Below, piece by piece: positions 57,232 to 64,000 of a stretch of DNA of 64,000 nt. Each line of letters opens with the position of its first letter. The first letter of the stretch is position 1. The notes under the pieces are model-generated. The model was not told the DNA's origin. It searched no databases and saw only the letters and a list, made by a program, of their open reading frames with translations. A program made the translations under genes and the position numbers. The stretch comes from Styela clava (Eukaryota), in NCBI RefSeq assembly GCF_964204865.1, contig NC_135259.1, forward strand, positions 12,524,001-12,588,000. Direction: 5' to 3'.

Positions 57232-58752
57232 ATGAAGTTTCGTTGTTTCCTGTTGCTGTATATTTTTATCTTGCCGAACGAGCTGATGATATGTGGTAAA
57301 ACAGGTTTGTTTATATTTTGTCGTTATTTAAGTAATGCTTGGTCTAAGCTAAAAAATTGAAGGTTAATCAGTTTGGAAAATTTATCAAACCAAATATCAT
57401 TAACTAAATAAAGCAATGCTTGTCAAAATCTAATCAGGCTGAATGAAAATAGTGATAAAGAATAAAAATCAAAAATATACATCTCAACTAATATCTGTAA
57501 AATAGCAGGAAACCTGGTCACGTTTTTGATAATGAGTACGAATGCTGGTTTCAACTATGTAAACTTAAAAACAAATAATTTAGCTCAAAATAATTATCGT
57601 TTTCCCATAACTTTGATTGATAAAGATGAAAATATAAGAACAACTCAAATCTTTTGTTATATGTTACCGGTGAATTGTTCTATTTCATTTTCTACAAACA
57701 TTTTGGAATGATCACTTCAAGTTTATACGCGTTAGGTAAATTATATACAGACAAGGAGTCACGAATAATAAAAACTTTTGCATTTAGGTGACTTGTGCAT
57801 CCACAAACTTGTTAAAGGTCGTCTCGTTACTGAAGGTTTCTGTGAGACTCCAAATGAACAAGGTGGGAATATGCATTGAATAGCACGTTATTGTCAAGAT
57901 TTTTCGTGAGAATTAATTTTTATTTTATTTACAACAGATATTATCACCCAACTGCGAAACGATGTAGAAGCTGCAAAGGAAAGGGGTAAGTAAAAAAGGG
58001 GGGAGGGGATGATGGATTAAAAGAGGTTAGGTTTTGTATGATAAATGGTATAAGATGTTAAAAAAATAAAATAAAATCAATACGTTGATAAAGACGTAAC
58101 GGCCATTAATTCACTAAACTATTTTACAGAAAAACTTAAAACCTGGTATAAAGCAAGCAACAACTTTTACTACAAAATGTTCTTGGACCAGGTTTCTTAT
58201 GCGACTGCCAAAGCAAACTGTCAAGAGAAAAAAGGCAAGTTTAGCTTCCGTTGGTGTTCGCGATTCTTCAATAAGAAAGTGAGTATTGAATTATTGTTTC
58301 AAATACGAAAGCGATGAAGTATAAGTTCGATTACAAAATGCAATACACATTGAAAGAACTTGCTATGTTTTATATCAGAATATTATTTATACAAATAGCT
58401 GCATGATATGTTTGCGGAATAGTGTTGTTTATTTAACTATGTTTTTTATATATTACAAAAACAATATTTTACTCTTATCATCAATAAACATTCAATAATG
58501 TTTTTAATCCACAGTCATTTAATCAGTCTTGCCAGTGGAGAACATGTGTGGATTGGATTGAATGATATTGAACATGAAGGCAACTTTATTTGGGAGGATG
58601 GCGTCGTTTCCACCGCAGATAATACTCCTTGGATAGATCCACAACCTGATAACGCTGCGGGAAATGAAGATTGCGTCGAATTGACGGAAAATTCATTAAA
58701 TGACCTTGATTGTTCTAGTTTATTACCGTATATATGTGAAAAATTTGTTTGA
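57232..58752 (+). CDS. Secreted QPD-type C-type lectin (lectin 4) with a +1 frameshift in exon 4 (pseudogene, null allele or sequencing error); exons 57232-57304, 57788-57862, 57938-57985, 58130-58278, 58515-58752
   Basis: Signal peptide; WY..SN..YYK..VSY..AKANC; VWIGLND..EG.F.WEDG..W..QPDN..EDCVE..LND..C..YICE; the frame is restored only by removing one base near 58228-58242. Confidence 0.85.
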
Positions 58753-59319: not shown

Positions 59320-61522
59320 AACTAGAGCTGCGTGCAGCTTTAACAGGCTTCCCGCGTAAAAAAAACTGAAGACGCGTTTTGCTCACTAGAGCGTGAAAGC
59401 GTGGTCAGTCATGCATAAAATTTGCATTTTATTGCTGGCTGAGAACTTCTGCACATTTGAGGTGAATTTCAAGTTTGTAGGACCAATTTGAAAAAAAAAA
59501 TAATAAAATAAATAATAATAATAAATAAATATTAATAATAATAAATAAATAATAATAATAACTAGAGCTGCGTGCAGCTTTAACAGGCTTCCCGCGTAAA
59601 AAAAACTGAAGACGCGTTTTGCTCACTGGAGCGTGAAAGCATGGTCAGTCATGCATAAAATTTGCAATTTATGATGGGGGACTTATTATCTGCATGTGAT
59701 GTAAATTTGAAGTCTCTAAGTAGTCTCGTTCTCGAGAAGAAGATGAAAATGTAAAATCCTATATTGCTCACTGGAGCGTATCGCCGAGGTCACTCATGCG
59801 TATCCTTGACATATCGTATCCGGAACATGTCCATTAATCATTGTTATGAATTTCAACCCAATAGCATGTATCAATTTTGAGAAATCGCAAAAAAAACTGA
59901 AGTCGCGTTTTGCTCACTGGAGCGTGAAAGCGTGGTCAGTCATGCATCAAATTTGCATTTTATTGCTAGCTGAGAACTTCTGCACATTTGAGGTGAATTT
60001 CAAGTTTGTAGGACCAATTTGGAAAAAAAATAATAAAAATAAATAATAACTAGAGCTGCGTGCAGCTTTAACATGCTTCCCGCGTAAAAAAAACTGAAGA
60101 CGCGTTTTGCTCACTGGAGCGTGAAAGCGTGGTCAGTCATGCATAAAATTTGCAATTTATGATGGGGGACTTATTATCTGCATGTGATGTAAATTTCAAG
60201 TCTCCAAGTAGTGTCGTTCTCGAGAAGAAGATGAAAATGTAAAATCCTATATTGCTCACTGGAGCGTATCTCCGAGGTCACTCATGCGTATCCTTGACAT
60301 ATCGTGTCCGGAACATGTCCATTAATCATTGTTATGAATTTCAATCCAATAGCATGTATCAATTTTGAGAAATCGCAAAAAAACTGAAGACGCGTTTTGC
60401 TCACTGGAGTGTGAAAGCGTGGTCAGTCATGCATAAAATTTGCAATTTATGATGGGGGACTTATTATCTGCATGTGATGTAAATTTCAGTCTCTAAGTAG
60501 TGTCGTTCTCGAGAGGAAGATGAAAATGTAAAATCCTATATTGCTCACTGGAGCGTATCGCCGAGGTCACTCATGCGTATCCTTGACATATCGTATCCGG
60601 AACATGTCCATTAATCATTGTTATGAATTTCAACCCAATAGCATGTATCAATTTTGAGAAATCGCAAAAATACTGAAGACGCGTTTTGCTCACTGGAGCG
60701 TGAAAGCGTGGTCAGTCATGCATGAAATTTGCATTTTATTGCTAGCTGAGAACTTCTGCACATTTGAGGTCAATTTCAAGTATGTAGGACCAATTTGAAA
60801 AAAAAATAATAAAAATAAATAAATAATAATAATAATAATAAAACACAGGAATACAATAGGTTCCCTGCTGACAAGCAGCGGGAAGCCTAACTAGAGCTGC
60901 GTGCAGCTTTAACAGGCTTCCCGCGTAAAAAAAACTGAAGACGCGTTTTGCTCACTAGAGCGTGAAAGCGTGGTCAGTCATGCATAAAATTTGCAATTTA
61001 TGATGGGGGACTTATTATCTGCATGTGATGTAAATTTCAAATCGCAAAAAAACTGAAGACACGTTTTGCTCACTGGAGCGTGAAAGCGTGGTCAGTCATG
61101 CATAAAATTTGCAATTTATGATGGGGGACTTATTATCTGCATGTGATGTAAATTTCAAGTCTCTAAGTAGTGTCGTTCTCGAGAAGAAGATGAAAATGTA
61201 AAATCCTATATTGCTCACTGGAGCGTATCGCCGAGGTCACTCATGCGTATCCTTGACATATCGTATCCGGAACATGTCCATTAATCATTGTTATGAATTT
61301 CAACCCAATAGCATGTATCAATTTTGAGAAATCGCAAAAAAACTGAAAACGCGTTTTGCTCACTGAAGCGTGAAAGCGTGGTCAGTCATGCATAAAATTT
61401 GCATTTTATTGCTAGCTGAGAACTTCTGCGCATTTGAGGTGAATTTCAAGTTTGTAGGACTAATTTGAAAAAAAAATAATAAAAATAAATAAATAAATAA
61501 TAATAATAATAATAATAATAAT
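59320..61522 (-). mobile_element. Tandem/nested array of Helentron-like non-autonomous elements with internal tandem core repeats and (TAA)n tracts
   Basis: Terminus aactagagctgcgtgcagct (hairpin plus CTAGTT on the minus strand) at 59320, 59560, 60048, 60889; subterminal IR aggcttcccgc vs gcgggaagcct (60878-60888); repeated tgctcactggagcgt cores. Confidence 0.8.
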
Positions 61523-61667
61523 CCTACCTACGGACTGTTGCCTTGTCGTGGCAGGTAGGCTTTAGTCCCTTAGTGAACCCACAAACTGTGCTGGCGGGAG
61601 TTATAACTCCTGGTAGGGTCACCCATGCCAGAGAGATTGTGGGGGAAAGGGCAAACTAAAACAGTCC
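61523..61667 (+). ncRNA. Putative HDV-like self-cleaving ribozyme variant at the retrotransposon 5' end
   Basis: P1 61523-29/61553-59, P2 61532-39/61660-67, P3 61540-42/61550-52 with 7-nt L3, long branched P4, J4/2 CUAA at 61656-59. Confidence 0.65.
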
Positions 61668-61701
61668 ACCGCTTGGGAGTAGCGTTCAATACTCCCATCT
61701 C

Positions 61702-64000
61702 ATGAAAATGATGGAAAAGAAATCAAGTAAAAAGCACAACGGCGTGAATGGGACTGAGTCAACTACGACCAGTGTCTCGCCCGGTACGGTAGACGGGGTT
61801 GTCGACCAGCCGCCTCCGGATCGTCATTCTACTACTGGTCGCCGAAAGTGGAGTAAAGAATCAAATGAAGTGTTAATGAAATGTTATTTGAAAAGTGAAC
61901 CACAGCTTAGAGGCTATAGACAACGAATGAAACGTTTTTGGGATGAGAACAACTTGTTTGATGCATCAGAACAACGATTAGCAGATCAGATTAGACAAAT
62001 AAAGTTGAATGGTTGGTTAACTGTAGTCGAAATAGAAAACATTCAAAGGTCAATTAACTCTAGTTCCGATCCATCGCCAGATGAGCCAGAAAGTTTGCCG
62101 GCAGTAAGGACAATTGAGGTGGAGGAACAACTTTGTGATTGCCGCGAAAACACCGAAGAAGTGGAAGTTTTAGATGATGTTACCAGGAGAATTCTTGAAA
62201 TAGCCCAAGAACAACGTTTACGCCAAGTTCCTTCAGTTCGAACTATTCCAAAATATAAACTATTCAGAGAAACAAGTGTAATAAACCAGGCCCTAAAAGG
62301 AATTAGCTCGACTAACATAACGGAAACAAATAAGTTAATTTATGCCGGAGCAATAGCCGTCACTGAAAGACTAAGCCTCAATGTAAACGGAAGAAAATGT
62401 AAAGAGCCAGCCTGGAAATTACGATTACACAATAAGATACAAGAGATGAGAAGAGATATTGACAGACTACAAAAATTTGAAACGATCAAGAAAAATAAAC
62501 TGAAAAAAGAATTGATGGAGAAATACAGAGTAAAACAGAAAGGATTGTCATGCGCAACTGAAGAACTTCGACAAAGAATAATTGCAACTGCAGCAAAAAT
62601 CAAGAGATATACAGAGAGAACAAGACAATTTCGCCAAAATAAACTGTTTGAAAGCAATCAAAAGCAATTATATCGGGAGTTATCAGGCGATTTTCATACC
62701 AGTAAGGATGTAAGTAGAGAACCACAGAATTGCAGAGAATTTTGGAACAACATCTGGGGATCTAAAACCACTCATAATCAAAAATCTGCTTGGTTAAAAA
62801 CAGTAAAGAAAGAATTGGAAAATATTCCTACTCAATTAAATTTCACGATAACTGAAGAAATTCTCAAAAGGCAATTGAAAAAACTAGCTAATTGGAAGTC
62901 TCCAGGGGTTGATATGGTACAGGCATACTGGGTGAAAAAGTTCACTAGTCTGCATGCACGGATTGCAAAACAACTTGACTACTGTCTTCAGCAAGGCAAG
63001 GTTCCAAGTTGGATTACCGAAGGAAAAGCAGTATTGATTTTGAAAAACGAAAACAAGGGAAATAGTGCTAATAATTTTCGACCAATAACTTGTTTACCAA
63101 TCATATGGAAATTATTTACAGGAATGATTGCAACTAGTATATATGACCACATTGAACAAAACGATTTATTCCCGACGGAGCAGAAAGGGTGCAAGAGAGG
63201 GTCGCGTGGGCCAAAGGATCAACTTTTAATTGACAAAATGGTCTTGGATAACTGCAGAAAACGAAAAACAAGTTTATCCATGGCATGGATAGATTATCGT
63301 AAAGCTTACGATATGATTCCCCATTCATGGATTTCCAAATGCCTGGATTTGTTTGCAATAGCCAAAAATTTGAAAAAACTAGTCATAAACAGTATGGAAA
63401 CATGGAGAACGCATTTGACGGCAAATGGAAAACATTACGGAGAAATTCAAATAAAAAGAGGAATATTTCAGGGCGATACTCTCTCTCCACTTCTTTTTGT
63501 TCTGTGTATGATTCCACTGACGATGGTTTTGAGAAAAACAACACAATCATACTGCATAGGAAAAGGAAAGGAGCGGCTGAACCATCTCTTGTACATGGAC
63601 GATTTGAAACTATTCGGAAAAAACGACAAAGAAATAGACTCTTTAGTGAAAACTGTACACATTTTCAGTCGGGATATTGGAATGGATTTTGGGATAGATA
63701 AATGCGCAGTATTAAGTATGAAAAGGGGAAAAATTACTGACAGTGTGGGAATTTGTTTACCAGATGGGAATAGCATGAGCCAGCTCGAGGAAAGCAATGG
63801 ATACAAATACCTTGGAATATTGGAATCAAATTCGATAAACGAAAATCAAATGAAGAAACTGATCATCCATGAATATACTAAACGATTAAAACAAATTCTA
63901 AAATCAAAATTAAATGGCGGCAACATTATCAAAGCTATTAACATACGTGCAGTTTCGGTAATTAGATACAGCGCTGTTTTTATTGGTTGGTCAAAAAACA
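61702..64000 (+). CDS. Retrotransposon ORF (N-terminal Myb-like region plus reverse transcriptase), 3'-incomplete; absent from the ORF track because it has no stop in the window
   Basis: RRKWSKE..CY..GYRQRM..W..SEQRLADQIR; NWKSPGVD; NFRPITCL; WIDYRKAYD; RGIFQGDTLSPLLF; HLLYMDDLKLF; YKYLG, all in the same frame. Confidence 0.95.
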   Translation, partial: MKMMEKKSSKKHNGVNGTESTTTSVSPGTVDGVVDQPPPDRHSTTGRRKWSKESNEVLMKCYLKSEPQLRGYRQRMKRFWDENNLFDASEQRLADQIRQIKLNGWLTVVEIENIQRSINSSSDPSPDEPESLPAVRTIEVEEQLCDCRENTEEVEVLDDVTRRILEIAQEQRLRQVPSVRTIPKYKLFRETSVINQALKGISSTNITETNKLIYAGAIAVTERLSLNVNGRKCKEPAWKLRLHNKIQEMRRDIDRLQKFETIKKNKLKKELMEKYRVKQKGLSCATEELRQRIIATAAKIKRYTERTRQFRQNKLFESNQKQLYRELSGDFHTSKDVSREPQNCREFWNNIWGSKTTHNQKSAWLKTVKKELENIPTQLNFTITEEILKRQLKKLANWKSPGVDMVQAYWVKKFTSLHARIAKQLDYCLQQGKVPSWITEGKAVLILKNENKGNSANNFRPITCLPIIWKLFTGMIATSIYDHIEQNDLFPTEQKGCKRGSRGPKDQLLIDKMVLDNCRKRKTSLSMAWIDYRKAYDMIPHSWISKCLDLFAIAKNLKKLVINSMETWRTHLTANGKHYGEIQIKRGIFQGDTLSPLLFVLCMIPLTMVLRKTTQSYCIGKGKERLNHLLYMDDLKLFGKNDKEIDSLVKTVHIFSRDIGMDFGIDKCAVLSMKRGKITDSVGICLPDGNSMSQLEESNGYKYLGILESNSINENQMKKLIIHEYTKRLKQILKSKLNGGNIIKAINIRAVSVIRYSAVFIGWSKN

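Follow-up and report, generated by a model that had tools for sequence, protein, structure and literature searches.

A predicted HDV-like ribozyme begins an R4/Dong retrotransposon of Styela clava and has conserved copies behind Helitron-like transposase genes

The window, meaning the whole 64,000-nt stretch of Styela clava DNA analysed here, closes within the single open reading frame (ORF) of a non-LTR retrotransposon whose leader carries a predicted self-cleaving ribozyme (Table 1). The element is about 3.6 kb long and the window copy is frameshifted inside the endonuclease end. The ORF carries an RVT_1 domain, a weak zf-RVT domain and a CCHC motif read by eye, and its C-terminal end holds a motif, likewise seen by eye, of the PD..D..K endonuclease type. 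A single ORF with a reverse transcriptase (RT) and a C-terminal restriction-like endonuclease, inserted in (TAA)n, is the description given for R4/Dong elements in excerpts of PMC7998251. Such an ORF is present here, and TAA-rich 3' flanks were found in 7/7 junction pairs among those listed. The tandemly arrayed repeat that serves as host ends in 11-nt subterminal inverted repeats, a terminal hairpin, CTAG and flanking TT, the Helitron2 layout as described in part of PMC11417382, and because of these ends the retroelement and the Helitron class meet physically. The host repeat is a non-autonomous Helitron2-like element, and the four copies of the retroelement in the genome that include the 5' region all sit in this same repeat family. 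A C-type lectin domain exon lies further upstream, at 58423-58752 of the window.

Table 1. Features of the window around the 5' end of the retrotransposon (window coordinates).
Feature	Position	Strand	Basis or remark
Tandem array of host repeat with Helitron2-type ends	59322..61467	-	Element inserted in the TAA tract of the repeat
TAA-rich target tract	61468..61522	+	Resumes after the 3' end of the element
Predicted HDV-like self-cleaving ribozyme	61523..61667	+	Sequence, descriptor, starts of element copies; predicted cut 5' of C61523
P1	61523-29/61553-59	+	Sequence, pairing check
P2	61532-39/61660-67	+	Sequence, pairing check
P3	61540-42/61550-52	+	GCC/GGC
L3	61543-49	+	UUGUCGU
Predicted P1.1	61544..61561	+	G61545-C61560 (canonical C-G swapped) beside U61544-U61561
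Large P4 domain, ~94 nt	61562..61655	+	Other copies retain the basal helices but vary in the distal hairpins
P4 helices	61567-71/61647-51, 61578-84/61637-43, 61591-95/61627-31	+	Pairing check
P4 hairpins	61597-610 and 61616-24	+	Pairing check
J4/2, with C61656 as candidate catalytic base, followed by the 3' strand of P2	61656..61667	+	C invariant in 6/6 copies
Hairpin directly before the ATG (ATG at 61702)	about 61674..61697	+	Fold energy; stable only in the retroelement copy
Single ORF of R4/Dong non-LTR retrotransposon	61702..64000 (runs past window)	+	RT; zinc finger and restriction-like endonuclease beyond window

The strands of the predicted ribozyme follow one another in the order P1-P2-P3-L3-P3-P1-P4-P2, which is that of the HDV-like nested double pseudoknot. 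P1, P2, P3, L3, C61656, the P4 helices and hairpins and the hairpin before the ATG, all named in a sequence-only reading that preceded this analysis, were found where that reading had placed them and pair as it had proposed. L3 has the form U...CG(U/C) on a P3 of three base pairs (UUGUCGU within GCC/GGC here, UUGACGU in the copy at L009), and J4/2 contains C61656 in six of six aligned copies and reads CUAA in five of them. The sequence-only reading regarded P1.1 as missing, whereas a swapped pair, G61545-C61560, can form in all six copies; because this G-C is invariant in 6/6, the predicted pairing draws no support from covariation. Position 1 is a C-G pair and not the G-U wobble of HDV proper, which places the fold outside the canonical HDV subtype and still within the wider HDV-like class. 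The 45-nt stretch with the hairpin before the ATG folds at -14.5 kcal/mol in the window copy and at -1.5 to -4.2 kcal/mol in three Helitron-side copies.

The folding z-score of the ribozyme region, -3.07, was equalled by 1 of 200 shuffles. A relaxed HDV descriptor, composed after the sequence had been inspected, matched the 64-kb window at 61523 only and gave no match on either strand of 40 Markov-resampled 64-kb windows. As had been anticipated for standard searches, the strict descriptor (purine at position 1, C22-G38) misses the fold, and Rfam returned seven matches on the window stretch at E up to 10, a ribozyme family being among none of them. Covariation among six close copies was not significant (doubly changed pairs were reached by 41 of 500 shuffles and the covariation score by 119 of 500), and P1, P3 and P1.1 are invariant across the six. 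A perfect 8-bp P2 is reached by two routes, the bulged U being absent from the window copy and paired with a changed base in L004. Judged from the sequence, the helices exist as described, and chance does not account for the HDV-type fold.

The departures from the HDV type, taken in the earlier reading to be unusual in kind, have precedents in L1Tc, CPEB3 and R2. The pair in the CPEB3 pseudoknot is oriented C-G. According to passages of PMC9901934, CPEB3 has one pair with an adjacent U-U, and compensatory double mutants at this single pseudoknot pair show positive epistasis; the fold described here likewise combines a single Watson-Crick pair with U-U in a small pseudoknot, and differs from CPEB3 in its G-C pair, its context and its much larger P4. 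The active L1Tc ribozyme, in which P1.1 is a single pair, cleaves at C1 (PMC3185411, in part). The relevant portion of PMC4035085 reports that P1.1 bases vary and that early descriptors were overly strict. The present fold is like those of L1Tc and Leishmania SIDER, as given in the same portions of these two papers, in its predicted cut before C1, its one-pair P1.1 and its being missed by strict descriptors. A highly variable P4 is described for R2 ribozymes in a section of PMC3774820. A natural G-C swap of P1.1 was not found in the literature covered, some of it in excerpt, and earlier papers or their figures may already show one; such a swap together with C at position 1 exemplifies what strict search descriptors miss.

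UUUAGU and ACUAAA, which can pair within the window copy, had also been proposed as an on/off switch. This helix is intact in only two of the six copies, is worth about 2.3 kcal/mol in the window copy and L005 and 0.1-0.3 kcal/mol in L004 and L009, and as a conserved switch it was rejected; the pairing predicted in the window copy is a possible misfold. One alternative holds that the RNA is of real HDV type and yet slow or misfolded in the window copy, with C-G at position 1 and the catalytic C buried, and that the 5' ends of the element arise from an internal promoter. HDV needs its G1-U37 wobble for full activity (PMC1874588, in part), so the C-G pair here may cut slowly; C61656 is paired in the competing helix with a probability of 0.97 under a model that scores neither P1.1 nor tertiary contacts, and the promoter start of L1Tc coincides with its cut site (PMC3185411, in part). 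Nevertheless, the competing helix contributes only those 2.3 kcal/mol or so, a value that leaves P1.1 and tertiary contacts out of account, and the passages cited for L1Tc (PMC3185411) describe a ribozyme that is active with C1, and we consider this alternative very improbable.

Three of the four retroelement copies with the 5' region, which lie on three contigs after different TAA tracts, begin at the base equal to C61523, and the fourth begins 6 nt past P2. That the fold lies precisely at the 5' end of the Dong/R4 element, as had been proposed, is borne out by where the copies start. The flanks of the copies are one repeat in differently arranged arrays, and therefore separate insertions are likely; the common start at C61523 is as expected if cleavage sets the 5' end. 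A ribozyme at the 5' end of Dong is a known arrangement, because self-cleavage following TAA repeats has been demonstrated for B. mori Dong (PMC3774820, in part). In common with Dong, R4 and R2 as treated in that part of the paper, the window element has the 5' end of its R4 clade in TAA repeats, a cut predicted at the 5' junction and a variable P4. Compared by description with Dong in the same pages, it is distinguished by the swapped G-C P1.1, the C at position 1 and the 94-nt P4, and by close copies of the ribozyme that also lie behind a DNA-transposon gene. The window feature is a further member of the known Dong arrangement, with deviations that have precedent.

Four older R4-like copies in the genome, 5'-truncated or decayed, gave no descriptor match. 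Related retroelements were located at 2 loci in viral contigs and 25 in genome contigs, and the relaxed descriptor found the HDV fold in 0 of 9 of their leaders scanned. The leader of L104 may contain a short canonical HDV fold, as seen by eye; Rfam identified no ribozyme family on it and returned no match at all on the leader of L106. The latter element, with 44% protein identity to the retroelement, has a leader that by eye is unrelated, hinting that 5' modules are swapped within the retroelement clade. Part of this leader (L106:130-349), on which Rfam found nothing, resembles a SINE head by eye.

A search of the genome with the leader gave 11 matches, seven of them outside the retroelement. 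Four of the seven follow directly on the stop codon that closes a very long ORF, and the other three (L007, L008 and L010), which lack the 5' strand of P1, lie within the same element clusters. L010 precedes a Helitron-like start codon by about 2 kb, and this element thus carries a copy on either side. The long ORF, of about 2,800-2,850 aa, carries OTU, PIF1 and GIY-YIG domains and was found at L026:181-8793 (-), L017:1050-9658 (+) and four more copies. It also contains HUH and two-tyrosine motifs, which are Rep signatures, so that a HUH Rep and a Pif1-type helicase, the combination of Helitron-like elements (HLEs), stand in a single ORF. Helraiser was the best PDB match, for the helicase part only, and a relative with 34-38% identity maps to Helitron_like_N clusters at 0.94. 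Searching with the Rep region at E up to 0.001 yielded 447 representatives; in the 20 of these that were scanned, Helitron_like_N was present in 17, PIF1 in 19 and GIY-YIG in 13. The Pfam family Helitron_like_N misses the genome's own OTU-Rep-Pif1-GIY-YIG protein. The genes resemble HLE2, as portrayed in a portion of PMC11417382, in the Rep-helicase ORF with OTU upstream; GIY-YIG capture is reported there for one moss family, whereas the present fusion of GIY-YIG to the end of the helicase extends through a broad clade (13/20 relatives scanned). By their domain content these genes form a divergent clade of Helitron-like elements in which a single ORF combines OTU, Rep, Pif1 and GIY-YIG.

A protein labelled Styela clava matches one of the copies at 99-100% across an intron. 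Helitron-like relatives were absent from the viral contigs searched, and a single-sequence structure model of the Rep region was discarded at a pLDDT of 31.8. Near the Helitron-like genes, on the opposite strand, are ORFs of 316-343 aa (L021:7000-8028 (-), L015:6624-7634 (+) and L020:7027-7974 (-)), which have no Pfam match and a weak OB-fold lead with a score of 0.77 or less.

Six copies of the ORF end were compared, drawn from 10 genome matches of which the remaining four are fragments. The whole RNA is present in three, 76-111 nt behind the stop codon, the 5' half in one, and a short relic in two that form a near-identical pair; in these three partial copies an abundant repeat stands in place of the ribozyme's 3' half. 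This repeat is exemplified by L011:1300-1500 (-), with 40 of 193 candidates scored. A decayed copy, C4, retains a 24-nt relic of the 3' part of the ribozyme, and no ribozyme was found at older Helitron-like fragments (40-55% protein identity), from most of which the ORF end is absent. The whole Helitron-side copies are 82-89% identical to the window copy. Between the three whole copies, pairwise identity is 92-97% in the core, 72-85% in P4, 48-58% in the flanks and 35-40% at four-fold sites of the ORF. Conservation of the predicted ribozyme on the Helitron side is far above that of synonymous sites, which points to selection.

It could instead be argued that the ribozyme serves the retrotransposon only and that the copies on the Helitron side, left passively by an insertion, owe their likeness to recent conversion or to 3'-end exchange among Helitron copies. 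Such an account would accommodate the broken ribozymes of three of the six ORF-end copies and the C4 relic, the lack of the 5' P1 strand in L007/L008 and L010, the star-like tree of the six copies, and a P4 that is kept better than a purely peripheral stem requires. It sits poorly with the high identity that ends at both fold edges and gives way to the low flank and four-fold values, with the drop from core to P4 expected under selection, and with the absence of other retroelement sequence at the Helitron-side copies, downstream of which neither a retroelement coding remnant nor a 3'-end remnant was found. Because the identity breaks off where the fold begins and ends and declines outward from the core, selection fits better than conversion, and we regard passive remains as unlikely. 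Copies with unbroken frames of 2,839-2,871 aa carry broken ribozymes, and the ribozyme is therefore optional for the Helitron-like family. In the whole-ribozyme copies the ORF is interrupted at one site (L017:4308-4385, with L014 and L023 interrupted at the equivalent position); in L017 the interruption was confirmed as a GT-AG intron. The ORF is continuous there in the broken-ribozyme copies.

The same sequence might also be read as a DNA-level Helitron2 terminus, composed of inverted repeats and a hairpin, that mimics an HDV fold and was captured by the retrotransposon as its 5' UTR. It is the last sequence common to the Helitron-like copies on their 3' side and is preceded by a T run, its P2 strands and downstream hairpin resemble the layout of subterminal repeat and stem-loop depicted in part of PMC11417382, and a search of five regions of 20-60 kb for Helitron2-type ends of the ribozyme-bearing copies found none. 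Against this, the unpaired features specific to HDV, namely the U...CGU loop closed by GCC/GGC and the C-U-A-A before P2, are kept; moreover, both inverted arms lie behind the ORF and do not flank it, the hairpin downstream has little stability on the Helitron side, and the retroelement copies begin exactly at the predicted cut. We therefore give this reading very little credence, slightly less even than that of a slow ribozyme.

The explanation we favour is that an HDV-like ribozyme, probably active, would free the retrotransposon RNA at C61523, and that the conserved Helitron-side copies would cut the 3' UTR of the transposase mRNA. The retrotransposon would then need no start site of its own: RNA reading through from the host repeat would fold P1-P4, C61656 would act as the catalytic base, and the cut would define the 5' end copied by reverse transcription. 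For the Helitron-like genes, such a cut would sever the coding RNA from its downstream tail, which may lower the output of transposase or provide a fixed, tail-less 3' end. The sequence would have passed once between the two element classes, aided by insertion of the retrotransposon into the TAA tracts of Helitron-type repeats, although the host repeat shows no sequence match to the ribozyme-bearing Helitron-like elements.

Passage from the retrotransposon to the Helitron is slightly favoured; the six-copy tree, being star-like, leaves the direction undecided. For this direction speak the age of such ribozymes in the clade, the start of the common sequence exactly at the first C, and the similarity of L005, which extends to within 4 nt of the ATG. 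For the reverse speak the lack of further retroelement sequence downstream and the unrelated leader of the 44% identical relative (L106). Tentatively, and at somewhat less than an even chance, a rolling-circle transposon has adopted the HDV-like ribozyme of a retrotransposon, and selection maintains it there to cut the transposon's own transposase mRNA; reverse transfer would mean a retrotransposon 5' end rebuilt from the cleaved RNA of a DNA transposon.

HDV-like ribozymes in mobile DNA have so far been described as processors of retrotransposon 5' ends, and the new aspect is the conserved copies of the predicted ribozyme behind Helitron-like transposase genes. Retroelement-derived HDV-like ribozymes in 3' UTRs, with exaptation proposed, are known from SIDER (PMC3185411 and PMC4035085, in part); a SIDER is an entire degenerate retroposon within a host gene, whereas here the ribozyme unit alone is kept, in the 3' UTR of a transposase gene that belongs to another mobile element. 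Terminon and Penelope hammerheads (PMC6431247, in part) are likewise self-cleaving folds that large mobile elements carry at their 3' end; those folds are of the hammerhead class and belong to retroelements, whereas the present one is of the HDV class and lies in a rolling-circle DNA transposon. If the favoured explanation is true, HDV-like ribozymes gain a role in a DNA transposon and move as modules between class I and class II elements, which would suggest a simple route for Helitron-like elements to limit their own expression. A link between Helitrons and ribozymes was not found in the literature covered, which lay outside subscription journals and Repbase; 'ribozyme' has no occurrence in the HELIANO/HLE paper (PMC11417382), and 'Helitron' is absent from a 2026 ribozyme survey.

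A relative of the ribozyme RNA outside Styela clava was not found in the metagenome contigs, the nine leaders or the covariance-model sources. The pattern scan of metagenome contigs gave one match, which was GC-rich, lacked the rest of the fold and was set aside as chance; a covariance model (R1) recovered the known copies only over 47 sources and weak matches only (E 0.6-0.93) over five more. Contigs of two runs from one study, guessed to be RNA, contain several additional ribozyme variants that differ in their 3' flanks, and they also cover diverged Helitron-like ORF ends; two other runs compared with the window leave the core uncovered. The two-run contigs show that further ribozyme copies exist, their strand, level and cutting being beyond the reach of contigs. 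The loose ends of a 207-nt contig of run X4 suggest a ribozyme variant with a flanking inverted repeat of about 18 nt; the inverted-repeat motif has no match in the Styela clava genome, and the contig could represent a fold-back or circular RNA.
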